36,065 bases of DNA from Bdellovibrionales bacterium (GTDB lineage: Bacteria; Pseudomonadota; Alphaproteobacteria; UBA9219). The notes under the pieces are model-generated. The model was given only the letters and a program-made list of their open reading frames with translations, ran no database searches and was not told the DNA's origin. The stretch spans positions 1 through 36,065 of the forward strand of contig JBFXDW010000003.1 of NCBI GenBank assembly GCA_050180745.1, written 5' to 3'. The position numbers and the translations under genes were made by a program. Shown here in pieces: positions 1,034 to 35,723 of this stretch (positions are counted from its first letter, which is position 1; every line of letters begins with the position of its first letter).

Positions 1034-1054
1034 AAGCGACCGTTTCTGTCACCT
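1034..1054. promoter_or_regulatory. Putative WYL-regulator box 1 (AAGCGAC-N7-GTCACCT)
   Basis: GACCGTTTCTGTCACCT matches box 2 at 14/17 positions. A minus-strand TAAAAT (1016-1011) lies 17 nt beyond it, upstream of the 41-aa ORF. Confidence 0.5.
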
Positions 1055-2042
1055 ATGGCAACCCATCCCACGATGGCGTTTTGCCAGCAATCAACTTTTT
1101 GAGTGCCGTTGGCTTAATCACCTCAACCTGATCGCCCCACATATAGAGATGCCACGCCATTTCAAGAAGGCCTCCGGCCTTAAAGCGCACGGTCATAGAG
1201 CCGTCTTTTCCGATGGTGACTTTCTGCTTCGGATGAAAGACGAAATCCTTGGCTGCTTCTGTTGCGTGAGGCGTGAACTTCCAAACGACTTCGACGGGCT
1301 TCTCACGCCAGATGCCAAAGGACTGCTCGGCATGGGCCTGAATATCGAAAGACGGATCACGGGCAAAACTTTCCTTTGGCACCGTTACGCCTTCGATTTG
1401 GGAAAGAATAAAGTGATAACGCGCAGCCTCGCGGCCTTTTTCAGTCCCACCGCCGACAAGATAGTGCCGATGGCCGTAGAGAAAACCATAGGGCGCAACA
1501 CGTTTGAGCGAGGCCTCGGCCTTGCCTTTGCCGCGATAGAGAATCTCAACGATTTTGCAGGCTTTGATGGCCTCGCGCAGCTTATGCAAATGTTCAGGAT
1601 CAATCTTGGGGCGAGGTCCAGGGCGTGCCGCCAATCCTTCGGCCTCAATCAAGGCTTCGAGGTCTGGCTCAATCCGGCGTGAAGCCTCGCATTTCTGAAA
1701 ACTTTTGATCTTTCCAGCTAACGAGCGCAGAGCTTTGGCCTGAAGGCGCAACCCCCGCCCGTTGAAGGCCTTTGAAGCCATGTCAAGGGTAGCCAGCTCA
1801 TCGGGCGTTAAAGCTAGGTGCCGCCCGTTTGTGGCCGAGGAAATGCGCCATCGTTTGATCCGTCCTTCATCGACGCTTTCTTCTGTTTGTGGATAGACCC
1901 GCACAACGGCATCGCGCATCCGCATGGCTGTCCGGCGTGAGACCTCAAACATTTCCTCAATATCTGCCAACGAAACGCCTTCGCCGTTCGATTGCATGGC
2001 AAAAGCGAGGTTTAGAAGATCTTCGGCTTTCTCAAATCGCAT
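1053..2042 (-). CDS. HTH-WYL-WCX transcriptional regulator, DriD/PafBC/YafY-like
   Basis: N-terminal wHTH (VSRRTAMRMRDAV), WYL core (RVAPYGFLYGHRHYLVG), WCX tail (FHPKQ...EMAWHLYMWGDQVEVIKP). 329 aa; the N-terminus resembles Caulobacter DriD as I recall it. Confidence 0.92.
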   Translation of the reverse strand: MRFEKAEDLLNLAFAMQSNGEGVSLADIEEMFEVSRRTAMRMRDAVVRVYPQTEESVDEGRIKRWRISSATNGRHLALTPDELATLDMASKAFNGRGLRLQAKALRSLAGKIKSFQKCEASRRIEPDLEALIEAEGLAARPGPRPKIDPEHLHKLREAIKACKIVEILYRGKGKAEASLKRVAPYGFLYGHRHYLVGGGTEKGREAARYHFILSQIEGVTVPKESFARDPSFDIQAHAEQSFGIWREKPVEVVWKFTPHATEAAKDFVFHPKQKVTIGKDGSMTVRFKAGGLLEMAWHLYMWGDQVEVIKPTALKKLIAGKTPSWDGLP

Positions 2043-2179: not shown

Positions 2180-2575
2180 ATGCGTAAACAGATTATGACT
2201 CTTTTCCTTCTCGTCCCCCTTTGCGGTTGCGCGGTGGCTATGTCGGCCAGCCGCAGCACGGCCAAGGGCGATCCCGCCATGATGCAAGTCGGCGCTGATC
2301 GAGCGATCATTGAAGAGACCTTTGGCTCCCCGAATATGACGGCCAGCCTTGATGGCGGCAAAACGAAGGTGATTTACAAAATTGATCCTGATGCCCACAG
2401 CGCAGGGGCGCGAAACGCCGCCGTTGCGGGACATGTGGTTGCCGATGTTTTGACCTTTGGTCTCTGGGAAGTCGTAGGAACACCGCTTGAACTAGCCGCG
2501 CAGGACAAATATACGAACTACGTCCTGATCTATGACAAAGAGAACAAGGTCGAGAGCGTTGAAACAATTAAATAA
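2180..2575 (+). CDS. Lipoprotein, BamE/SmpA/OsmE-like
   Basis: GAGGA RBS before ATG 2180. Signal peptide MRKQIMTLFLLVPLCGC with an LCGC lipobox. G-x2-R-x2-I-x3-FGSP and the terminal LIYDKENKVES strand fit the BamE-like pattern. Confidence 0.75.
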   Translation: MRKQIMTLFLLVPLCGCAVAMSASRSTAKGDPAMMQVGADRAIIEETFGSPNMTASLDGGKTKVIYKIDPDAHSAGARNAAVAGHVVADVLTFGLWEVVGTPLELAAQDKYTNYVLIYDKENKVESVETIK

Positions 2576-2780
2576 TCGGCTCCACAGCTTCAAAACCGGA
2601 CGATGGGCGTCAATACGGCTCCTTCAGGCGCTTTTTGCACAGAAAAAAGCAAAAAACGAGCAGCGAACCTTGACGTTTCTGCGACAAATTCCTCAAATGG
2701 GTTAATATCTTATGACGAACGAATCATTTATTGGCGCATCCGAAGATTTAAGGAGCGCGAAAGGAACCCAAGGTCAAGAA

Positions 2781-4682
2781 ATGGCGAAAAGTCTCTTAGA
2801 ACAACTCCCCACCATTGTCGCGGAAGGAAAGCGAGAAGCCGAACGCATTATGGAGCGCTTGGAAAGTGCCCAGCGCATCGGCCTTCAGACCCGCGAACTT
2901 GTTATCCCGTCGCGGGACACGAATTGGCAAAACATGTTTGCGCGGGCGGAGAAGGCTTCGCATGACCTTGATCCCGCAAATATGAACCGCCTCATTTACG
3001 GCGACAATCTTCTGGCGATGGCCGCGCTCTTGGCGGGGAATGATGAAACGCCATCCATGCGCGGCAAGGTTGACCTGATCTATATCGACCCGCCATACGA
3101 CAGTAAGGCGGATTACCGAACGAAGATAAATCTTCCTGGCGATGAAATTGAACAGAAGCCAACTGCGATTGAGCAGTTTGCGTATTCTGATACATGGAAG
3201 GATGGTACATTCAGTTATTTGCAGATGATTGTGCCGCGGCTAGTGCTCATGCGAGAGCTTTTGAGTGATACTGGGTCCATCTGGGTCCATCTGGATTGGC
3301 ATGTTTCACACTACGTGAAGATTGTTCTAGATGAAGTGTTCGGGCGAGAATTATTTAGGAACGATATTACATGGCACTATGCGAATTCTGGACTAAAGGC
3401 GCGGTCTAGGAAATTTCATCAAGTTACTGATAATCTCTATTGGTACACAAAATCTTCTGAATTTACCTTTAATCATTTATTCAAGGAAAGAAAGGATGGC
3501 CAATCCAAGCAGGCGAAGCGTAAGTTCAATCCTATAACCAAGAAAGCCGATATGGTTAGGGATGAGCAGGGAAATATAGTGTATGAAATCAGAGACGAAG
3601 TTTTAGAAAACTCTCTTTGGGAAACTGGTAGTATGAGTAATAGCCCAGAACGGATAGGATATTCAACGCAAAAACCAGAAGCACTCTTACAGAAAATAAT
3701 CCAATCAACATCTAACGAAGGGTATCTAGTTCTGGATGCCTTCGCGGGTTCTGGCACAACAGCGGCAGTCGCTGAAAGACTTAGTCGTCGCTGGATTGCA
3801 ACCGATCTTGGAAAGCCCGCTTGCATGGTTACACGCAAGCGACTGATCGATCAGGACGCTAAGCCTTTCCTTTATCAGCATGTAGGCGACTATCAAGTTG
3901 AAATGGCCCGCAGCACAATGGGGCGCAAATTCCGCGTTGGTGATCTTTCTGAAATTGTCCTTCGCCTCTTTGGTACTTTGCTGCTTCCCATTGAAGAGAA
4001 CCCAAACCGCAATATGGGGCGGGTTCCGCACACCAAAATGCTGGTTCTTGCCGATAGCCCGAACAAGCTCACGGGTCTTGCAACGCTTAAACGCGCCATC
4101 GAAATCCGCGATAATCTGATGGGCGGCTGGGATAAGGTCATCATTCTGGGCTGGAACTTTGACTCCAACATTGGACAGGACATCCAAGCTCTTAATCAGG
4201 GCGACAAACTCGAAGTTTTGGTTATCCCTCCCGACTTGCTCGACCGCCTAAAGAAAAAAGGCGACAAGTTGAAGACGGAAGAAGTCCGTTTCTCCTCGCT
4301 TCAATACGTAAAAATCAAACCCATTGAGCGCACGAAGGCCGGAAGCAAAGAAACCTTGACGGTTGAGCTTGATAATTACGTTCTCCTTTCTCCCGACGCC
4401 CTTAGCCTCGATGAGGCAAACAAAAAGAAGTTGCAAAGCATTATCAACAAGGAGCCGATGGCACTTATCGAGTATTGGAGCGTCGATCCCGACTATGACG
4501 GCCATGTGTTCCGCTCGGTCTGGCAGGATTATCGCGGAAACACTGAAAACGATGACGATCCGTTCCGCGTCGTTACTACAGCCCAATTAACAGACCTTCC
4601 AGCCAAAGACGGCAAACGTCGCGTTTGTGTGCGCGTCGTTGACGTTTTCGGCTTTGAAGCTGAAGCCATTACGGAGGTCTGA
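2781..4682 (+). CDS. mod: Type III restriction-modification methyltransferase (Mod, beta-class amino-MTase); alternative start at 2712
   Basis: Motif IV IYIDPPY precedes motif I DAFAGSGTT. LIYGDNL and YSTQKPEALL motifs present. Lies upstream of a Res helicase-nuclease. Confidence 0.92.
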   Translation: MAKSLLEQLPTIVAEGKREAERIMERLESAQRIGLQTRELVIPSRDTNWQNMFARAEKASHDLDPANMNRLIYGDNLLAMAALLAGNDETPSMRGKVDLIYIDPPYDSKADYRTKINLPGDEIEQKPTAIEQFAYSDTWKDGTFSYLQMIVPRLVLMRELLSDTGSIWVHLDWHVSHYVKIVLDEVFGRELFRNDITWHYANSGLKARSRKFHQVTDNLYWYTKSSEFTFNHLFKERKDGQSKQAKRKFNPITKKADMVRDEQGNIVYEIRDEVLENSLWETGSMSNSPERIGYSTQKPEALLQKIIQSTSNEGYLVLDAFAGSGTTAAVAERLSRRWIATDLGKPACMVTRKRLIDQDAKPFLYQHVGDYQVEMARSTMGRKFRVGDLSEIVLRLFGTLLLPIEENPNRNMGRVPHTKMLVLADSPNKLTGLATLKRAIEIRDNLMGGWDKVIILGWNFDSNIGQDIQALNQGDKLEVLVIPPDLLDRLKKKGDKLKTEEVRFSSLQYVKIKPIERTKAGSKETLTVELDNYVLLSPDALSLDEANKKKLQSIINKEPMALIEYWSVDPDYDGHVFRSVWQDYRGNTENDDDPFRVVTTAQLTDLPAKDGKRRVCVRVVDVFGFEAEAITEV

Positions 4683-4684
4683 TT

Positions 4685-5617
4685 ATGACGCGAAGTAAAA
4701 CCCGCTACACAGTACCAGATACGGAAGGAGAAACAATTACTCCCAGTCGCCTCAAACAACTTGGTAAGGATCGCCAGATTGAGATTATGCGGCAATGGTT
4801 TTTTGAAAATTATGAAGACCCTGTTAATCGAACTCCTTATGAGAGTGCAGAGGGAGGATATATCTATATCTACGGGGGACCTTTCGAGGCACAAGAGGAA
4901 CTCGGTGGAGAATTTGGCGGGCTTGTCAAAGATGAGTTCATTGATGAACTCGCAGACGAACTAAATGATATTAGTTGGGAATGGACTCACACAGAACGGC
5001 CTAGCGATTATGATGATTTCTATGCGGTCGAAGCAACGCTTGATCCAGATATACCTGAAGATGCGCTACAAATCAGGATTGAAAAAATACGCGAGCTATT
5101 GGAACAAAAGGAACTGATCGATTCTAACCTCCACACCTTCCTGTTAATGATGATCTACAGCTTCAGCATCACTACGCTCGAATGCTTTTTATCTGATACC
5201 TTTATACGTGCGATAGATGCCAGCGATGTTCTGAAAAAGAAATATGTGACCGAGGGAAAATTGAAAATACCTTTGGCAAAACTTATCAGCATGAAAGATG
5301 TGAAAGAAGCTGAGGAAGCTGTCAATTTGCAGATCAGAGCAACACATCTAAGGACATCATATCATGATTTAGAAACGGCAAGCAGATTATATAAAAAAGT
5401 TCTTAATGTGGAGTTATCTGAAATTTCTTCAACAGATAAATTGCGTGACTATGTACGCAAACGACATGATTTTGTTCATAGAGGCGGGAAAGATGAACAA
5501 GGTAATGAAGTGACAACAAGCAAAGAAGAAGTCAAAGAACTTCTCGATGAGATTGAAAAGTTTTGTCTAGAGATCAAAGGCAAACTTAATCCGCCATTCT
5601 CGGATGATTTTTTCTAA
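4685..5617 (+). CDS. HEPN-domain putative RNase with an acidic N-terminal domain
   Basis: R-x4-H motif RHDFVH followed by RGGK (5462-5479). Upstream helix ITTLECFLSD. N-terminal WF..NYEDP..PYES.EGGY segment. AT-richer than the flanking genes. Confidence 0.75.
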   Translation: MTRSKTRYTVPDTEGETITPSRLKQLGKDRQIEIMRQWFFENYEDPVNRTPYESAEGGYIYIYGGPFEAQEELGGEFGGLVKDEFIDELADELNDISWEWTHTERPSDYDDFYAVEATLDPDIPEDALQIRIEKIRELLEQKELIDSNLHTFLLMMIYSFSITTLECFLSDTFIRAIDASDVLKKKYVTEGKLKIPLAKLISMKDVKEAEEAVNLQIRATHLRTSYHDLETASRLYKKVLNVELSEISSTDKLRDYVRKRHDFVHRGGKDEQGNEVTTSKEEVKELLDEIEKFCLEIKGKLNPPFSDDFF

Positions 5618-5628
5618 CGGAGCATGGC

Positions 5629-8562
5629 ATGAATGGAATAAATGACCTTACCCTCGCTCGTCGTCTAACATGCCGTGTGGCAGAGGCCTGCACTGGCCTT
5701 GAAAACGGCGATGCGCCGATCCTCTCTCAAGTTAGCGATGCCACCGCCGAACTTTTGAAATGGTGGTTCCAACAGGATTTTATGGATACGCGCTCTTACA
5801 ATTTCCATGAAGGGCAACGCGCCGCGATTTTGAACATTATCTACGCCCATGAAGTCCTGAAAACGGCTTCACTTAAGGGACTTTATGAGAACGTCGCGCC
5901 AGAAGTTCTCGTGGCCAGCGCCCAAGCGGTGGAACTTATCGGCGCGGATAAAAACGACTGCCCCAAATACTGCCTCAAGATGGCGACGGGTACGGGCAAG
6001 ACGTGGGTTTTGCAAGCCCTTATGGTTTGGCAGATTCTCAATGCCAACCGAGATCCCAGCAATTCCCGTTATACAAAGAATTTCTTGGTCGTTGCCCCTG
6101 GTCTTATCGTGTATGACCGTCTGCGCGACGCATTCGAGGGTAAAGAACGCGACGGAAAGCGTGATTTTGCAACGTCTGACCTTTCGATTTTTCAGGATCT
6201 ATTCATCCCAGCCGCGCACCGCGACGAAGTTTTTCGCTTTGTTCAGGGAGCCGTGTGCCCCAAGGAAGAAATTGGACGTAAGGTTACGTCGGGCGGCATT
6301 ATCGCCATAAGCAACTGGCACGTTCTAAGCGAAGAAGGCGAGGATGACGGCCAGCAAGAAATGGTTTTCGCCCCTGGTACGCGTCCCGATGCAAAGGACG
6401 TTATTAAAGACCTGCTTCCCTTAACGCCAGGAACGTCGCAGGGAAATGACCTCAACGTCCTTAACAGGCGTTTTCAGCGCGGCGGGATCCTGAACTATTT
6501 GTGTGAGCTGCCGAGCTTGATGGTGTTCAATGACGAAGCACACCATATCCACGAGTTTAAGCGCGAAGGCGAAGTTTCCGAGGTGGAGTGGCAGAAGAGC
6601 CTTTCCTTGATTGCTGAACCCAAAGCGGATCGTTTCGTTCAGGTGGACTTCTCAGCCACGCCTTACAACGAGGTTGGTACGGGCAAAAAGGCCAAGAAGT
6701 CGTTCTTTCCGCATATTGTCGTGGATTTCGACCTTAAAACGGCCATGCGCCTTGGCCTTGTAAAGTCGCTCGTCCTCGATAAACGAAGCGAAATTGGTGC
6801 GCTTTCCGATGAGCAATTGGAGTTCAAGGCTTACCGTGACGAAAACGGAAACCCGCAACTAGCCGAAGGCCAGCGCATTATGCTTCGCGCAGGCCTGACC
6901 AAGCTTCGCAAACTTGAAGAGGATTTTGCCAAGCTTGATCCCGACCGCCATCCCAAAATGCTTGTCGTTTGCGAAGACACGTCTGTCACGCCCCTCATTG
7001 AGGACTTTTTGCGTCTCGAAGGGCTGGGGCATGACGAGATTTTGCGCGTTGACTCCAACCGCAAAGGCGAACTCAAAATGGATGAATGGAAGGTTCTGCG
7101 TGAGCGCCTGTTCGATGTTGACCGCCACGCGCACCCGCGAGTCATTATAAGCGTTTTGATGCTCCGTGAAGGTTTCGATGTGAACAACATTTGCGTCATT
7201 GTTCCCCTTCGCGCCTCGGCTGCTGGCATTTTGCTGGAACAAACGATTGGACGTGGCCTGCGCCTCATGTGGCGCGGCGCGGATTTTGACGACATTAAGC
7301 ACGAAAACCGCAAGCTGATCTGCGAAGGTAAAACGCCGGAAAGTATGATCGACATTCTTTCAATCGTTGAGCATCCGGCTTTCATCGAGTTCTATGAAGA
7401 GTTGATTAAAGAGGGTCTTGTTGGCGAAACTGAAGACGACGACAATACCGGAGGCTCTTCTACAGGTGACTTGGTTGCTGTTGGGTTGCGCTCGAACTAT
7501 CAAGACTATGATTTTGCCATTCCGTTTATCCTTCGAGAGAGAGAAGAGGAAGTGCAAACGCGGGAGATTGCCGTTTCTTCCCTTGAACCTTTTACGACCT
7601 TTTCAGTTGATAGGCTGAAGGCAATGATCGGAACCGGAGAGAAGTTCCACTCTGAAGACGTTCAGGACAAAACTCGTTTTGGCGACTATCGCGTGAATGG
7701 CGGCGTGATGACGGCGACAGGGTACAATGATTACCTTGGGCGTATCGTTCGCCGCATCACAGAGGCTCTAAGCCAACCGCTTACCGATAGCTCCACCAAG
7801 TACAAGAAAGGCACCGAGTTTCCGCACATCCAGATCAACCGCGCCTATCTTGCGGAAGGGATTGACGAGTACATACGGACGCGGCTTTTTGAAAAGCCGT
7901 TCGATCCTTTTGAGAATGAAAACTGGCGCATCTTGCTTGTCGATCCTGTGACAGAACACATCATGAAGATTTGGGCGCGTCAGCTATTGGCGGCAGAGGA
8001 AACGGCTGTTACGGCGGATGCCGAAGTGACGCACCGCCTGCTTTCGGAAGTTCCCAAGCTTACCATGCGCGAAAGCTCGTCTCTCGCGGTTAGCAAAAGC
8101 ATCTATTTGCGTCTGCCTTATCCTTCCCGCAGCGGCGGACTAGAGCGGGCCTTTATCGAAACAGCAGATCGGGACGGCTCCGTCGATGGTTTCTGCAAGC
8201 TCAATGAGCAAAAGCACACCTTCACAAGACTGCGCTATATCAAGGAAGATGGGCTTCCGGCCTTCTATTACCCCGATTTTCTGGTTCGAAGCGGTGACAA
8301 GATTTATCTCGTCGAGACAAAGGCACAAGGACAAGTTAATACGCCAAACGTGAAGCGCAAGAAACGCGCCGCCGTCTCATGGTGCGATAGGCTCAACAGC
8401 CTCGCGCCGGAGCAGCGCGGCAATGCCGAATGGCACTATGTTTTGCTTGGCGAAGGCGTTTTCTATGAATGGCGAGACAAAGGCGCGTCCATTAAGGACA
8501 TGCTGGAATATGCAAAGCTAAGGCCTGTTGACGAAAGGGTTCAATCGGCGTTTGCTTTTTAG
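5629..8562 (+). CDS. res: Type III restriction endonuclease Res subunit (SF2 helicase plus PD-(D/E)xK nuclease)
   Basis: MATGTGKT (motif I), DEAHH (II), SATP (III), LREGFD (V), QTIGRGLR (VI), and C-terminal YYPDFLV...LVETK. Confidence 0.93.
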   Translation: MNGINDLTLARRLTCRVAEACTGLENGDAPILSQVSDATAELLKWWFQQDFMDTRSYNFHEGQRAAILNIIYAHEVLKTASLKGLYENVAPEVLVASAQAVELIGADKNDCPKYCLKMATGTGKTWVLQALMVWQILNANRDPSNSRYTKNFLVVAPGLIVYDRLRDAFEGKERDGKRDFATSDLSIFQDLFIPAAHRDEVFRFVQGAVCPKEEIGRKVTSGGIIAISNWHVLSEEGEDDGQQEMVFAPGTRPDAKDVIKDLLPLTPGTSQGNDLNVLNRRFQRGGILNYLCELPSLMVFNDEAHHIHEFKREGEVSEVEWQKSLSLIAEPKADRFVQVDFSATPYNEVGTGKKAKKSFFPHIVVDFDLKTAMRLGLVKSLVLDKRSEIGALSDEQLEFKAYRDENGNPQLAEGQRIMLRAGLTKLRKLEEDFAKLDPDRHPKMLVVCEDTSVTPLIEDFLRLEGLGHDEILRVDSNRKGELKMDEWKVLRERLFDVDRHAHPRVIISVLMLREGFDVNNICVIVPLRASAAGILLEQTIGRGLRLMWRGADFDDIKHENRKLICEGKTPESMIDILSIVEHPAFIEFYEELIKEGLVGETEDDDNTGGSSTGDLVAVGLRSNYQDYDFAIPFILREREEEVQTREIAVSSLEPFTTFSVDRLKAMIGTGEKFHSEDVQDKTRFGDYRVNGGVMTATGYNDYLGRIVRRITEALSQPLTDSSTKYKKGTEFPHIQINRAYLAEGIDEYIRTRLFEKPFDPFENENWRILLVDPVTEHIMKIWARQLLAAEETAVTADAEVTHRLLSEVPKLTMRESSSLAVSKSIYLRLPYPSRSGGLERAFIETADRDGSVDGFCKLNEQKHTFTRLRYIKEDGLPAFYYPDFLVRSGDKIYLVETKAQGQVNTPNVKRKKRAAVSWCDRLNSLAPEQRGNAEWHYVLLGEGVFYEWRDKGASIKDMLEYAKLRPVDERVQSAFAF

Positions 8563-8630
8563 ATTAACTTTTGAGCGGCAAAGGGTTATCCCTTCGACTA
8601 TAGTTGCTCATCTTTAGAATAAGGAGCCGC

Positions 8631-10052
8631 ATGGAAAACCTTCCCAAATACAAGCTGCTTTCTTCTGAGACAGCAGGAGGAAAACCTAATCTTCTCGACG
8701 GAAAAACAGCGGAGGAAGGCCTGCGACGGATACAGGCACTTCTGGCAGATTGGCTGCGCATGGAGAATGTTGTTGTTTTAACTGCCGCTGGCTGCTCTTT
8801 TGCGTGTGGCGGAAGACTGATGGCTGGACCAAAAGATAATAATCTGGAGTGTGTTGTTCTTAACGCCGTTGAAGCCGCGCAATTGGATGAAAACGCCAAA
8901 GCCGTTATTCAGCACAGAAAATCAACATGGCCAGAAGATGATGCTTATGGCCCCTTTGGATTTGAGGAGTGGCTAAGTTATGTGTTTAACGCGCCAAGTC
9001 TGTCCCAACCTGCATCTTCTCCCATTAAGTCTGTTATTTGGAAAACGATTAAAGACCAGGAGGAAAAGGGTCTAGCTCTCGATGATAAGGATTTAACAAG
9101 TTTGCGTAGCCTTATTGAAAAAGCAATCTATGCAGAATGTTCCTTACAAATTGATCGCACAGAACTTTCATCAGATCACGAACAAAAAACGTCGGGTCAT
9201 ATTCCTTTTTTAGCAAAACTCATCGCACGAGATGCAAACCTTGGCAGGACGCATTTGTTCACCCTTAATTATGACACCCTATTCGAACAAGCGATGGAAG
9301 AGCTTGGGATACAGTATTTTGATGGTTTTTCAGGAAAGGCTTGCTCTCGCTTCGATCCGTCGGTCTATGGCTTGGACATTTATTATCCTGGAGACGTTGC
9401 TGAAGGGCGGGTTCGTCGTTTTGATAAATTCTTGCAGTTCTACAAACTACATGGGTCTCTTCATTGGTCTTTTGATGAAAAAAACATATGTCGCGCAAAA
9501 CACCAAGATTTTGATTTTGTAAAAGACTATAAAGAACAGACCAATGAGAAAAAGGCGGAACGGCTTATATCGAAAGAATTTGGAGCTATTACCTCTTATG
9601 GGATACTCCCAACCTCACAGAAGTTTTCGCAAACGCTCGAAATGCCGTATGCTCATCTATTTCGCTTATTTCACGCAAGATTAAACCAACCGCAAACATT
9701 TCTGCTCGTCCTTGGTTATGGTTTTGGAGACGAGCATGTCACGCGAATTATTGAAACAGCCCTCATGAATCCATCTCTCGTAATGCTGGTTGTCGAACCA
9801 AACCCCAACAGCCTTGTCGTTAAAAAGATACTGAATTACCAGAAGCTAGGACAAAGGGCTTTCGTTTTGACATCAAGCGATGAAAGTTGGAAAAAGAACC
9901 CCTACCAATATGCAACCTTTTCTGACTTTGCCCAAAACATTATGCCCGACATTAAATGGCTTGAAGATTTCAAACGCCTTCGTTCTTTTGAAGAGCAAAT
10001 TGGTAATGCGCAGAAAGATGGAGCGCCATCAGCCATGTTAAGCGAGGGATGA
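8631..10052 (+). CDS. sir2: SIR2-family NADase (Sir2 of a Sir2-HerA defence pair)
   Basis: AAGGAG RBS before ATG 8631. Motifs VVLTAAGCS, FTLNYD, KLHGS and LGYGFGDEH. ATGA overlap with HerA. Confidence 0.9.
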   Translation: MENLPKYKLLSSETAGGKPNLLDGKTAEEGLRRIQALLADWLRMENVVVLTAAGCSFACGGRLMAGPKDNNLECVVLNAVEAAQLDENAKAVIQHRKSTWPEDDAYGPFGFEEWLSYVFNAPSLSQPASSPIKSVIWKTIKDQEEKGLALDDKDLTSLRSLIEKAIYAECSLQIDRTELSSDHEQKTSGHIPFLAKLIARDANLGRTHLFTLNYDTLFEQAMEELGIQYFDGFSGKACSRFDPSVYGLDIYYPGDVAEGRVRRFDKFLQFYKLHGSLHWSFDEKNICRAKHQDFDFVKDYKEQTNEKKAERLISKEFGAITSYGILPTSQKFSQTLEMPYAHLFRLFHARLNQPQTFLLVLGYGFGDEHVTRIIETALMNPSLVMLVVEPNPNSLVVKKILNYQKLGQRAFVLTSSDESWKKNPYQYATFSDFAQNIMPDIKWLEDFKRLRSFEEQIGNAQKDGAPSAMLSEG

Positions 10053-12196
10053 TGGAACAAACCCGTGTCATAGGCCATGTTGTTGCTATATATGGTTTCA
10101 GATTAAAAGTAGAGCTTTCCCCTGATGCAAAGTCTTCGTCAAGGGCAACCCCAGATGGGGTTCAACGCGCTGTTGCTATAAACTCCTTTTTAACATTTGA
10201 TCTTGGTGCGGGAACTTATGCGATAGGAATGTTAAGTGACTTGGAAGCGCGTGAAAGCTACGACCCAACACAAGACAAAGAATTATCGTTAGAACTGACA
10301 AAACCGCGACGCATTGCTTCCGTTCAACTTTTAGGAACAGTTAAGCAAGATGGAAAAAGGGAATGGAAATTTGATACTGGCATTACGGTGCTGCCAACAC
10401 TTGATACGCCTGCAGAGGTTGCCTCTCCAGACATTCTCTCCGGTATTTTTGCCTGCCCCCCAAAACGAAACAGGCCCCATTCCAGCACAACAGACGATTA
10501 TGATTTCCCGCTAGACTTAGGTCATCAAACGGGAAATGAGGACGTTATAATCAAAGCATCTTTTAATGACTTATTCTCTCGCCCTCTTGCTGTTGTAGGG
10601 AACACGGGGTCTGGTAAATCTTATACAGTCGCAAGCTTGTTACGTGGCATTATCGAGCTTGAACGGTTTTCCACGATTTCAGATGCAGAACCACACGTCT
10701 TTATCCTCGACATTAACGGCGAATACGCAAACGCCTTTTTAGATAAAGGCAGATCGTCCTATACACGCGAGCCAAACAAAATATATTTGAATGGAGAGGA
10801 ATTTTGTGTTCCTGCGTGGTTGATGAATGGTGAAGAAGTTTGCGAGTGGTTACAAGCTTCTGAAGCTACACAAGAGCCAGTATTGAAAGACTGGTGGGCG
10901 ATTGCAAAATCAAAACAGATGGGTATCGGATCATATGATCCATTACAAATTGCTATTCAGAAAATAGACGGGGCAATTGGTTGGTTGGACAAAAATAGCC
11001 CCAAGAGTGCTTTCAAGCTCGCGCTAGATCATGCCAAACAATATGCGCCTGACGAAGACTGGGACAGTCTCACGGCCCTTCCAAAGTGGTCAGATGATAC
11101 TTCAACAAAAAAGGATGACTGGGCAAAAATCACCAATGACAAGGAAGTTCGCGATTCTCTCGGAAAATTTCGTGGGAATCTGTTGGAAAAAATATCTATA
11201 AGACAACAGGATGGCATTAACTTTGCGAGAACCGCCGATTCTCCTCGGTTTGTTGCCTTAAATGATTTTCGTGACCCAAATCTTGTCGATAGATCAACAG
11301 ACATAGATGGAAGTAAAAAAATAGATCAGTATCTTCTAACATTAAAACTTCGTCTTCGCACAAGGCTTGATGATCGACGCTGGCAGTCATTCTTTAGCTA
11401 TGAACAGCAAAACGTTCACACGTTTGAAAATTGGATAGAGAAAATGGGGATCGGCCAGAAGAACGGCTGGCGAATCTCTATTTTGGATCTTTCAATGCTA
11501 GCCTCCGAAGTTTTACCCTTCGTCTGCGCTTTGATTGGTAGGCTCCTTTTGGAGACGAGGGAAATGTTGCGGCCAGATGTTCGTAGCAAATATCCCTGGG
11601 TGCTCGTTTTAGAAGAGGCCCACAATTACGCAAGGCCATCGGCACTTGCAGAAGACCGTGGGCAAACCCTTTCCCGTAGAGCTTTTGAGCGCATCGCTAA
11701 AGAGGGACGCAAGTTTGGTCTCTCTCTCATTGTCGCTAGCCAACGCCCAAGTGAGATTAGTCCGACGATTGTAAGTCAATGTGCAAACTTTTTTGCCCAT
11801 CGGTTGCAAAATCCAGATGATATAGAACATTTCCGCCGCATTATCCCGAAACAGGCACAAAGGCTGCTCGATCAAATAACAGTTTTAGCGGCAGGCGAAT
11901 CCATTGTCTTCGGAAGTGCTGTGCATATTCCAACACGTGTTCAGATTAGGATTCCATCCCAAGAACCGTGGAGCGCAACAGCAGCGCCATATGTTGATTG
12001 GGCAAAGACAGACCAGTTCCCAATAAAAGACGTTATTACAGACTGGGGGCTTGTGGAGGAAAAAGTCGTTGAGAAAGATTTTTCTGCGGGAGATAGTCAG
12101 CTAGAAGAAGAAACCACTACGGCTCCTGCTGCACAAGGAAGCAGCTATCCCTCACAAAATGGTTCCAATGATCTTGATGACGAGATACCGTTCTAA
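10049..12196 (+). CDS. herA: HerA/FtsK-family ATPase with N-terminal HAS barrel and SSB-like C-terminal tail
   Basis: Walker A GNTGSGKS, Walker B VLVLEEAH, IAKEGRKFG and ASQRPSE. Ends ...NGSNDLDDEIPF. Confidence 0.92.
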   Translation: MMEQTRVIGHVVAIYGFRLKVELSPDAKSSSRATPDGVQRAVAINSFLTFDLGAGTYAIGMLSDLEARESYDPTQDKELSLELTKPRRIASVQLLGTVKQDGKREWKFDTGITVLPTLDTPAEVASPDILSGIFACPPKRNRPHSSTTDDYDFPLDLGHQTGNEDVIIKASFNDLFSRPLAVVGNTGSGKSYTVASLLRGIIELERFSTISDAEPHVFILDINGEYANAFLDKGRSSYTREPNKIYLNGEEFCVPAWLMNGEEVCEWLQASEATQEPVLKDWWAIAKSKQMGIGSYDPLQIAIQKIDGAIGWLDKNSPKSAFKLALDHAKQYAPDEDWDSLTALPKWSDDTSTKKDDWAKITNDKEVRDSLGKFRGNLLEKISIRQQDGINFARTADSPRFVALNDFRDPNLVDRSTDIDGSKKIDQYLLTLKLRLRTRLDDRRWQSFFSYEQQNVHTFENWIEKMGIGQKNGWRISILDLSMLASEVLPFVCALIGRLLLETREMLRPDVRSKYPWVLVLEEAHNYARPSALAEDRGQTLSRRAFERIAKEGRKFGLSLIVASQRPSEISPTIVSQCANFFAHRLQNPDDIEHFRRIIPKQAQRLLDQITVLAAGESIVFGSAVHIPTRVQIRIPSQEPWSATAAPYVDWAKTDQFPIKDVITDWGLVEEKVVEKDFSAGDSQLEEETTTAPAAQGSSYPSQNGSNDLDDEIPF

Positions 12197-20837: not shown

Positions 20838-21686
20838 ATGCGCATTTGTAGGGTTGTCAGAAAAAGAAATACCCAAGAGGGAAATGTTGAAAATGTGCTT
20901 TTGTCCGCTTTAAAGAATTTGGATATGAAAGACGGGCAATTTGATTTCCTCATGACCTATGGAGGCTTTATCAACACCAAAGCAGATAGAAACCCTAACA
21001 ATAGAAGTTGGGCCTCTACGAAAGAAGACCTGCGTCCGTTCATTGAAGCCGCAGAAAAAAAGATTAACACCCTTATCACAGATAAATTTTATAGAGTCGC
21101 TCAAGGAAAAGTCCGGTTCCTATCTTTGGGCGTGGATGTGAGTTCCCCTGATTTGAACTCCCCTAAACTGAAATCATCTGGATCACATTTGTTTAAATCA
21201 AGTGCTGAACTTATCGCAGTAATTGATGTGGCGAAAAAGAAGATCATACATTGGACGGGAAAATCCTATCCAACGTCTGATCAAGAACGAACCCTTGTGC
21301 AGGTTTCTGACCTGGACTCGCACTTCATAAAACTTGGAAAAAAAGAAATCCTTATTTTGGGATGTCATGATTTGAACATGTTCAGTTCACGAGGAGCTTC
21401 CACGAGAAAAAAAGGAGGAGAAAGAGATAAGAGGTGCAAGGAAATGTGCAGGCTGCTTAAGAAGCATCAGCCACAAGTAGCTCTTCACCATCCTCACTGC
21501 ACGGATTCTCCTAGAATTTGGCAAATAGCATGGAGCGGTCTTAAAAAAATATTACGTGTTGAACCTATTTGGGCAAGCGGGATTCACTATGCTCCTTCTA
21601 AAGAACCAAAATGTAGAGGACCACTCAAAAAAGTCCTTGAAGCCACACGATCAAATTCTAAGGACATCGTTGACGTCATTATCTAA
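20838..21686 (+). CDS. Basic hypothetical protein, possible degenerate carbon-nitrogen hydrolase (nitrilase) fold; moron
   Basis: GAGGAGG RBS, AT-rich. LILGCHDL resembles the nitrilase nucleophile elbow; WTGKSYP may supply the Lys. Confidence 0.6.
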   Translation: MRICRVVRKRNTQEGNVENVLLSALKNLDMKDGQFDFLMTYGGFINTKADRNPNNRSWASTKEDLRPFIEAAEKKINTLITDKFYRVAQGKVRFLSLGVDVSSPDLNSPKLKSSGSHLFKSSAELIAVIDVAKKKIIHWTGKSYPTSDQERTLVQVSDLDSHFIKLGKKEILILGCHDLNMFSSRGASTRKKGGERDKRCKEMCRLLKKHQPQVALHHPHCTDSPRIWQIAWSGLKKILRVEPIWASGIHYAPSKEPKCRGPLKKVLEATRSNSKDIVDVII

Positions 21687-26220: not shown

Positions 26221-27168
26221 ATGAAAATCTTCTCTCGCCGATATAAAACACCAATTGAATCTGGGCAGTTGATGGTCGAACTGTCTGCTCGTTTGCGGGG
26301 CAGAGTGTGGAAGGAAATGCAGGAAATAAACGAAACTATAAGAAAGACGACAGACGGAGGGTGGAACTATGATTCCTCTGTTCTTGATGAGGCAGAACAC
26401 ACGATCAAGAGACTTTATGGTGTTGATGAGTTTGATGTTTGGTTGAAATCCAGTGTCCAAGGAACTTCTTCTGAATTAAAGGATCTTGTTTGTAGCGGAT
26501 GTTATCATTACCAGATTTTGGATGTAATCGAAATATGCTTCGGAGAATTGTGGGACTCTAAGAGATACACTTTTCAGCATGCGGTCAACTTAGCAATGGA
26601 AGATGAGAGATGTCCGTGGAGACTGTCCGATGGGTACTTTTTCAAAGTTGACTCTGAATTTTTAGAACAACACATCTTTTCCACTGCCCATTTGATGTTA
26701 GGAGATGACGGTTTTAAAGGGGCGTTGGAGGAGTTCGATGATGCTAGAGCTGATCTGACAGCGGGCGATCACAAGGACGCCATTCTGAAAGCATGCAAGA
26801 GCCTAGAAAGCGTTATGAAGGTTATCCTCACCGCACGAGGAAAAGACTTTTCTCCGACTGCAGCTGCAAAAGTATTATTGAACAATCTATCTGAAAGCGG
26901 TTTTTTTGGTGATATTCCAATTGAAGGGAGGAATGTCATTACAGGACAGGTTGTGCTGTGCTTACCTTCTTTACGTAATAAATTAGCCGGACACGGTCAA
27001 GGAGGGATTGTTGTAAATATTCCTCAATCATATGCCTCGTTATCAATAAAACTTGCTGCAGTTCTTAATACCTTTCTGATTGAACATCATCAAGAAACCC
27101 AAGAAATTGGGTCTCCCGACACGACTGAAGATAATGCACTCGATCAAGACGATGATATTCCTTTCTAG
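26221..27168 (+). CDS. AbiJ/Abi_C-like HEPN abortive-infection protein with SSB-like C-terminal tail; moron
   Basis: N-terminal FSRRY...LRGRVW, DAILKACKSLESVMK helix, R-x5-H motif RNKLAGH (26974-26994). AT-rich, antisense, ends ...DQDDDIPF. Confidence 0.8.
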   Translation: MKIFSRRYKTPIESGQLMVELSARLRGRVWKEMQEINETIRKTTDGGWNYDSSVLDEAEHTIKRLYGVDEFDVWLKSSVQGTSSELKDLVCSGCYHYQILDVIEICFGELWDSKRYTFQHAVNLAMEDERCPWRLSDGYFFKVDSEFLEQHIFSTAHLMLGDDGFKGALEEFDDARADLTAGDHKDAILKACKSLESVMKVILTARGKDFSPTAAAKVLLNNLSESGFFGDIPIEGRNVITGQVVLCLPSLRNKLAGHGQGGIVVNIPQSYASLSIKLAAVLNTFLIEHHQETQEIGSPDTTEDNALDQDDDIPF

Positions 27169-35060: not shown

Positions 35061-35723
35061 ATGAGGGCCGAGGCCTCTCATGTTGCAAACCTCAAAAAAT
35101 TGATCGAAGAAACGTCCCGTCGGCATAACACCTGGCAAGTGTTTCATGATTTTGTCGCTATGTCTGCGATCAGCATCCGCAACGCCACCGATCCAAGAGA
35201 GCGTGACAAGTACGAACAGCAATATCTCGACATTGTGAAAAGGTATGACAGGGAGGAAGTCGATAGGTTCCCCCTTATGCTGGCACATCTGGTCAGCGCT
35301 CTCGAAGAAGATTTGTCGGACATACTCGGCCAGCTATTCAGCGAATTGGAGCTGGGCAACAAATGGAAAGGCCAGTTCTTCACCCCCGATGATGTTTGCC
35401 GCCTTATGGCCAAGATCACCTACGGCGAAGACCTGAAAGAAAAACTCAAAACCCAGCCCTACATCTCGGTTCAGGAACCAGCCGTTGGCGGCGGAGCCAT
35501 GATTATCGCCTTAGCCCGTGAAATGAGGGATCAGGGCATTAACTATCAAAAGAAGCTTCAGGTCACGGCCATCGACATAGACCTTCGCGCCGTCCACATG
35601 GCCTACCTGCAATTCTCGCTCTTCCACATTCCCGCCATCGTCATCCACGGCGACACCATAAGCCTTGAAACCTATTCCGAATGGCGCACCCCAGCGGCAA
35701 TCTGGAACGGATCAAATAGTTAA
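35061..35723 (+). CDS. N6-adenine-methylase-like protein (HsdM-like N-terminal/SAM-binding part only)
   Basis: GQFFTP (motif X), QEPAVGGGAM (motif I), DID and GDT are present. Ends before any NPPF/Y motif IV. Confidence 0.8.
   Translation: MRAEASHVANLKKLIEETSRRHNTWQVFHDFVAMSAISIRNATDPRERDKYEQQYLDIVKRYDREEVDRFPLMLAHLVSALEEDLSDILGQLFSELELGNKWKGQFFTPDDVCRLMAKITYGEDLKEKLKTQPYISVQEPAVGGGAMIIALAREMRDQGINYQKKLQVTAIDIDLRAVHMAYLQFSLFHIPAIVIHGDTISLETYSEWRTPAAIWNGSNS

Follow-up and report, generated by a model that had tools for sequence, protein, structure and literature searches.

Single-gene HEPN defenses and nested defense genes

Defense genes resembling the one described here are known both as single-gene systems and as genes nested in restriction-modification (R-M) operons. 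aRES is a tested, stand-alone anti-phage system defined by a PF18870 domain together with a RES domain, and in its accessible portion the paper assigns neither a trigger nor a function to the PF18870 domain (10.64898/2026.01.28.702374). The available part of a review table lists PF18735 for ApeA, PD-T4-2, PD-T4-5 and PD-T7-3 (PMC10952713), and host tRNA is given as the target of ApeA (10.64898/2026.01.26.701840), HepS and DARNA in the accessible sections of those reports. Among nested genes, the accessible text of Payne et al. describes PrrC as ‘almost exclusively’ embedded and many independent systems as occasionally embedded in others (10.1101/2024.01.29.577857). According to the available text of Silas et al., Ronin (ronA) is ‘always’ linked to hsdMS; that text also describes a type III enzyme that, if blocked by Ocr, kills unaided. 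Anantharaman et al. propose a likeness to PrrC for at least 16 HEPN clades linked to R-M and, in the accessible part of their survey, list RiboL-PSP-HEPN without an R-M link (PMC3710099).

Here we describe gene X, found between mod and res in a type III R-M operon within a window of 36,065 nucleotides (the whole stretch of DNA that was analyzed). We favor, at a probability of roughly 0.65, the reading that X is an RNase that acts alone in abortive infection and is carried, as an exchangeable cassette, between mod and res in a prophage R-M operon; Mod and Res are likely not needed for its control. X shares with aRES the form of a single stand-alone gene in defense islands, a C-terminal effector and, probably, the Pfam family of its N-terminal domain. 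It differs in that its predicted effector is a HEPN RNase whereas that of aRES is an NAD+ phosphorylase, in lacking a RES domain, and in scoring below the PF18870 cut-off (24 vs. 27.4 bits), with a TM of 0.58 for the domain between predicted models. ApeA, HepS and DARNA (PD-T7-3) likewise join a HEPN effector and a sensor region in one gene located in prophages or islands, but their sensor domain differs from that of X, and DARNA carries its HEPN domain at the N-terminus. No PADLOC model of ApeA or DARNA type matches X or 97 relatives; HepS post-dates PADLOC 2.0, and its structural alignment with X (Z 6.4) covers the HEPN part only. Like X, PrrC places an Rx4H HEPN effector inside an R-M operon. 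Unlike PrrC and Ronin, X has no ABC ATPase, lies in a type III rather than a type I operon, and shows linkage that is rare rather than near-obligate. As with HEC and PDC genes, X lies inside the operon of a different system while probably being independent otherwise, but the accessible part of that survey covers Hma, BREX, DISARM and type I R-M, and X matches no HEC or PDC model of PADLOC 2.0. X passes the Pfam cut-off of PF18735 and its family corresponds to PHROG 17908, both sequence families without a tested function for the X architecture.

Gene X lies within a prophage type III operon

The gene order WYL regulator, mod, X, res, sir2, herA occupies one prophage end, and head, tail and lysis genes recognized by Pfam extend over 12-35 kb. 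The WYL/WCX regulator (1053..2042, minus strand) is divergent from the defense cluster and is a candidate controller. On the plus strand follow mod (2712..4682; a later ATG is the likely start, giving 633 aa as in the homolog P0262), X (4685..5617) and res (5629..8562). X encodes 310 aa, comprising an N-terminal domain of HEPN_RES_NTD1 type, a HEPN domain of RiboL-PSP type and an acidic tail. The TGA of mod ends at 4682 and is separated by a 2-nt gap, TT, from the ATG of X at 4685; the TAA of X ends at 5617, and an 11-nt gap leads to the ATG of res at 5629. A Sir2-HerA defense pair (8604..12196, plus strand) fills a second variable slot 3′ of res. Promoter and terminator scans gave no more hits than chance would (10 vs. 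12.0; 12 vs. 13.1).

The GC content of X is 0.403 (GC3 0.36), compared with 0.484 for mod and 0.519 for res. The variable middle of mod (3250-3750) is equally AT-rich (0.405), and sir2 and herA are at 0.43 and 0.45; low GC is therefore a mark of all the swappable parts here. The flanking genes match the PADLOC models MTase_III (E 4.6e-78) and REase_III (E 6e-25). With mod upstream of res and the motifs DPPY, DAFAGSG, GTGKT, DEAH and PD..ETK intact, the SF2 helicase and PD-(D/E)xK nuclease motifs of Res among them, the operon has the makeup of a type III R-M system. We considered a decoy R-M system and rejected it because the catalytic motifs of Mod and Res are intact. The initial annotation, made from the sequence alone, had placed X 2 nt past mod and 11 nt before res, called it AT-richer than both neighbors and assigned these to a type III R-M system; the coordinates, the GC values and the PADLOC matches with intact motifs agree with it on all of these points.

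Other features of the window were noted in passing. An AT-rich 282-aa moron beside the tail genes (20838-21686, plus strand) has no Pfam or NCBIfam match and no meaningful PADLOC match, and a 220-aa N6-methylase-like ORF lies at the other prophage end (35061-35723, plus strand). Small lipoprotein-like ORFs precede mod in the window (about 2180-2575, plus strand) and in a related prophage (L244:1-432); their sequences are unrelated, and they are possibly involved in superinfection exclusion.

X has the anatomy of a HEPN RNase

The HEPN domain spans residues 119-301 (5039..5587, plus strand) and contains RHDFVH, an Rx4H HEPN catalytic motif (R260-H265; 5462..5479, plus strand). Pfam assigns residues 128-301 to PF18735, HEPN_RiboL-PSP, at 32.4 bits against a cut-off of 28.4. 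R260, H265, E166, H227, R266 and G268 are invariant in 98/98 aligned relatives, and among 143 sequences R260, H265 and E166 are conserved at 0.99-1.00. In a model of X built from the 98-sequence alignment (pLDDT 90), the N-terminal domain is small and of alpha/beta type and the C-terminal domain is helical, with the last five residues (306-310) disordered (pLDDT < 50). Comparison of residues 118-307 with 48,161 solved chains placed the HEPN structures 1ufb, 5yep and 7ae2 on top, with 124-129 residues aligned at an rmsd of 3.3-4.4 and Z-scores of 8.3-8.6, which are modest and common for helical bundles. About 15 known HEPN chains, including HEPN toxins of MNT-HEPN pairs, are among the top matches. 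Foldseek with the X model gave no match at E 0.001, no PDB chain is homologous to X by sequence, and Pfam, NCBIfam and PADLOC detect no ABC ATPase domain in X. The predicted all-helical HEPN fold is consistent with the Pfam assignment of X to the HEPN superfamily, RiboL-PSP type. The earlier description of X, with an RHDFVH motif and the anatomy of a HEPN RNase, is borne out by the Pfam score, the structural matches and the invariance of R260 and H265.

The N-terminal domain is a portable module

The core of the N-terminal domain (residues 34-100; 4784..4984, plus strand) is acidic and aromatic, with the motif FxENYEDPAxxTPYESAEGGYIYIWGGP and the invariant residues F39, P46, P51, G57, G65, P66 and W100. 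Across 75 residues of the domain we count 19 acidic, 4 basic and 13 aromatic. Pfam matches HEPN_RES_NTD1 (PF18870) to residues 34-100 at an E-value of 5e-5, below the family cut-off, and many X relatives carry a precomputed PF18870 mark. The predicted-structure neighbors of the domain include proteins combining PF18870 with RES; folded alone without an alignment, the domain reached a pLDDT of 49. The initial annotation had suggested an N-terminal domain shared by HEPN and RES proteins, an identity that the sub-threshold PF18870 match and the RES-protein neighbors support.

Conservation of the N-terminal domain exceeds that of the HEPN part in all 13 pairs compared. Between X and its homolog P0002 (P0001 vs. 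P0002), the 108 N-terminal residues are 94% identical and the rest 39%, as if the HEPN half had recently been exchanged or the putative sensor were very strongly constrained. Elsewhere the domain is fused to PIN, GmrSD_N, REase_AHJR-like and unannotated domains, and in P0252 it occurs in tandem. These fusions to other effectors, together with aRES, indicate a portable module that works without R-M. We consider it likely that the domain is the sensor of X, a role that had also been raised from the sequence at the outset. As a separate observation, nine loci (L068, L072, L073, L076, L077, L079, L115, L118 and L120) fuse the domain to unannotated helical C-terminal domains; several of these fusions end in WPF, PPF or LPF and are candidate effectors.

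Relatives of X are mostly found outside R-M operons

The X family comprises 141 representatives of 50% clusters at E < 1e-30. We examined 240 loci, taken as the best 80 of 358 in genomes, the best 80 of 95 in viral sequences and the best 80 of at least 397 in metagenomes. Both domains and the Rx4H motif are encoded at 184 of the 240 best loci, which form 126 clusters at 85%; in 94 of these clusters the flanks reach at least 500 bp on each side. X matches no PADLOC family, and 1/98 relatives has one weak hit (E 6e-4). All 98 aligned relatives match phrog_17908, whose function is unknown, and a single-protein viral scan with X returned no match. In a mostly non-subscription literature we found no paper on the X architecture or on a HEPN guard embedded in a type III operon. 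Judged from its sequence, X likely represents an uncatalogued family of single-gene HEPN defenses that, in this prophage, travels with a type III operon.

Searches with Mod and Res, by tblastn and by profile, found the order mod-X-res in 1/184 two-domain loci among the 240 best (L170), a count in which the contexts of the roughly 15 closest homologs (P0002-P0015) lie mostly outside view. The sole other Mod/Res profile match among the 240 best loci is a small methylase four genes away from X in L210. L170 is 63% identical to the window in Mod, 41% in X and 66% in Res, with a 4-nt overlap and a 7-nt gap. We therefore reject an obligate mod-X-res linkage. Homologs in other contexts had been named in the initial annotation as one of the findings that would speak against a guard of the R-M complex, and such contexts largely prevail.

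Most two-domain relatives sit in prophage hotspots or defense islands. In L011, L106 and L117, X fills the P2-type slot flanked by replication gene A and the portal gene, and its other sites include lambdoid and Mu-like prophage slots, integrases, IS elements, plasmids and housekeeping genes. Among neighboring ORFs of at least 120 aa, dereplication reduced 284 to 197; scans of these and 5 others chosen by motif, and of a further 47 plus 3, identified defense neighbors such as ApeA_NTD1, AbiJ_NTD3, SIR2, Mrr and PD-T7-5. The frequent location beside integrases and IS elements or on plasmids, like the structural matches to toxins of MNT-HEPN pairs, would suit an addiction or stress toxin that helps to maintain mobile elements, or an RNase whose targets are RNAs of other mobile elements, with no infection trigger. 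However, the 197 dereplicated neighbors of at least 120 aa include no conserved partner (short antitoxins are outside that range), X sits in known prophage defense slots, and its N-terminal domain belongs to a tested anti-phage system; we regard a toxin of this kind as improbable. In one enterobacterial lineage (L087:6997-7998 and 22 related loci), we observed a 333-aa ORF that always lies 15 nt after X and belongs to no clear family (a weak GNAT hit, E 9e-4), possibly a two-gene variant.

Two further copies of X are adjacent to R-M genes. In L035 a type II R-M pair ends 18 nt upstream of X, and in L057 hsdS lies upstream of X on a contig that ends just past it. A mild association spanning types I, II and III (the window, L170, L035 and L057) would be explained if X sensed the products of DNA destruction, such as breaks, short oligonucleotides or ssDNA, without binding to the restriction nuclease. 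ApeA, also a single gene with an N-terminal domain and a HEPN domain, is reported in the accessible text to be activated by deoxydinucleotides (10.64898/2026.01.26.701840), and the available part of an earlier survey places ApeA in R-M operons in some taxa (PMC3710099). Yet a domain with 19 acidic and 4 basic residues in 75 offers a poor surface for nucleotides unless metal bridges them, and most X copies have no nuclease neighbor. Such indirect coupling strikes us as a long shot.

The mod-res junction seen from the R-M side

We assembled 13 loci of this Mod/Res subfamily in which the junction is visible, including six of 14 plasmid records and leaving out L243, which is cut off. Searches of genomes with Res gave thin returns (1/400, 0/40 relatives and 2/400). 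X occupies 2/13 junctions, those of the window and L170. In 10/13 (L244, L246, L248, L249, L251-L254, L257 and L258) mod directly abuts res, and in L247 an IS1380 element and a dehalogenase lie between them. L244, a related prophage whose Res is 92% identical, lacks X cleanly and reads mod-TGA-TC-ATG-res. In the independent run X2, two contigs connect 4687 and 5638 through the 6 nt also seen in L244, so that the cassette (4688..5637, plus strand) is delimited as 950 nt, in place of which X-less alleles of the operon have 6 nt. Contigs running from mod into the start of X were found at 88% in run X2 and at 99% in run X3. All of these matches are short pieces, taken at a threshold of 80%.

The Res tree groups the window with the X-less L244 as its sister, and L170 with the X-less L257 (bootstrap 99). 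With X-less sisters on both branches, two gains or a cassette exchange are simpler than one gain followed by several losses. The X copies of the window and L170 belong to the same clade of 20 (support 1.0), in which the L170 copy is sister to the stand-alone copies L162/L163 (support 0.96). In this clade L162/L226 and L163, the nearest L170 relatives of known context, and L199 all stand alone. The top X homolog (P0002) and the top Mod homolog (P0263) are each encoded on a single Logan contig of 5674 bases, which probably represents a third mod-X locus. A second such pair, P0062/P0295 on 3030-base contigs, is expected by chance in 120 x 120 comparisons and was not counted. The junction has been filled in two Res lineages (66% identical), and probably at a third locus, by a single X clade.

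These observations bear on the proposal of the initial annotation, that X is a dedicated, ATPase-less guard of the type III complex comparable to PrrC. X would bind Mod2Res and stay silent until an anti-restriction protein disabled the complex, possibly in the junction subclade only. The tight nesting in the window and L170, the probable third case, the single X clade and the R-M-adjacent copies L035 and L057 are in keeping with a guard, and the same logic has been proposed, in the accessible part of the survey, for at least 16 R-M-linked HEPN clades (PMC3710099). The proposal nevertheless fares poorly: the mod-X-res order is found at a single two-domain locus among those surveyed, X is absent from 11/13 junctions, the nearest X relatives of L170 stand alone, X has no ABC ATPase domain, and aRES works without R-M. 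The genuine guards PrrC and ronA, as described in the accessible texts, are nearly always linked. We judge a guard of this kind very doubtful. In sequence terms, the independence of X is argued for by the rarity of the nested arrangement, the X-less sister Res, the stand-alone L162/L163 and the portable N-terminal domain, and argued against by the occurrence of one X clade in two Res lineages, the probable third mod-X locus and the L035/L057 adjacency. There may be local coupling to R-M, or specialization, within the junction clade.

The slot 3′ of res also varies, holding Sir2-HerA in the window, AAA_13/PDC-S06 in L244 and an ATPase with a UvrD-like protein in L257. The L244 protein (L244:5787-8051, 754 aa) directly follows res, matches PADLOC PDC-S06, has a weak PrrC hit and carries a RESH motif near its end; it is RloC-like. 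In L257 (8009-12192), an ATPase (749 aa) and a UvrD-like helicase (644 aa) directly after res appear Gabija-like by eye. Mod of the window is 69% identical to that of L244 while Res is 92% identical, with the difference in the middle target-recognition region. Mod comparisons (window vs. L244, and P0263-P0381) indicate that specificities are swapped within this Mod family, which is very large (7935 hits).

A C-terminal acidic-Phe tail is enriched in the X family

X ends in a disordered tail, NPPFSDDFF (residues 302-310; 5588..5614, plus strand), with acidic residues and a terminal Phe. A terminal Phe is found in 92/171 homologs dereplicated at 60%, compared with 29/850 ORFs of the host genome, and a terminal Phe whose eight preceding residues include two or more D/E in 70/171 compared with 5/850. 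At the 240 best loci, 71/140 distinct X tails end in Phe vs. 27/834 neighbor tails. Because terminal Phe is enriched in the family yet absent from about half of its members, we take it to be selected but optional. Among relatives with the HEPN part only, 2/25 end in Phe, and among N-terminal-domain-only proteins 7/15 do, the latter from few families that are not independent; terminal Phe thus seems to follow the N-terminal domain rather than R-M. We rejected an AT-bias artifact, as the frequencies across three GC bins are 28/53, 32/61 and 11/26. Adaptation of the tail to the R-M position was also rejected: many stand-alone members have the tail, whereas P0002 does not.

The C-terminal tip of SSB is DDDIPF and T7 gp2.5 has an acidic tail ending in Phe, and the tails of the X family bear an apparent likeness to both. 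Terminal PF occurs in 27/171 homologs and a strict DD-x-IPF in 2/171; X itself ends in DDFF, and its SDDFF fits the SSB tip poorly. The acidic-aromatic tail noted in the initial annotation is real at the level of the family, and its description there as a weaker match to the SSB tip was apt. Three host-genome ORFs of at least 250 aa carry an SSB-tip-like pattern, which was written with these tails already known, and all three are defense proteins of the one prophage in the window: X, HerA (10049-12196, plus strand; DLDDEIPF) and an AbiJ_NTD4/DUF7014 moron (26221-27168, plus strand; DQDDDIPF). The HerA and AbiJ_NTD4 tails are nearer to the SSB tip than that of X. The host SSB was not found in the 90%-complete genome, and the mostly non-subscription literature yielded nothing on SSB-tip tails of defense proteins. 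On contig C1 of G000, we also noted a short phage-like ORF ending in TDFIDDEIPF.

A model for X and its place among phage defenses

As a stand-alone abortive-infection RNase, X would be kept off in uninfected cells, and two X subunits would form one composite active site from R260 and H265, by analogy with other HEPN systems. The acidic, aromatic N-terminal domain would bind an infection cue. The acidic surface of this domain favors a basic protein over a nucleotide as its ligand, and our foremost, though tentative, candidate is a basic nucleic-acid-binding phage replication or recombination protein. Activated X would cut host tRNA (rRNA or mRNA being less likely), as in ApeA, HepS and DARNA, and so stop translation, with the acidic-Phe tail serving, where present, as a peptide for docking or regulation. 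From the R-M operon X would gain a promoter, translational coupling and a ride, giving a layered defense in which DNA cutting comes first and X and Sir2-HerA act as back-up. A bolder and rather unlikely extension is that the N-terminal domain and terminal Phe together make up a portable infection sensor mounted on HEPN, RES, PIN and GmrSD effectors, with the tail acting as an SSB-tip decoy at replication proteins, and that the junction clade may be becoming an ATPase-free back-up of R-M.

Since single-gene HEPN defense RNases are known, as are defense genes inside R-M operons, the locus as such holds little surprise, and the interest of X rests less on the nesting than on its selected tail and the N-terminal module it shares with other systems. 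The value of X is as a handle: the family is large and has no catalogued match, and its enterobacterial members suit standard phage panels. The selected terminal Phe offers a sharp mutational handle on whether defense proteins borrow the SSB tip, and the ligand of the N-terminal domain shared with aRES, once found, would explain several systems together.
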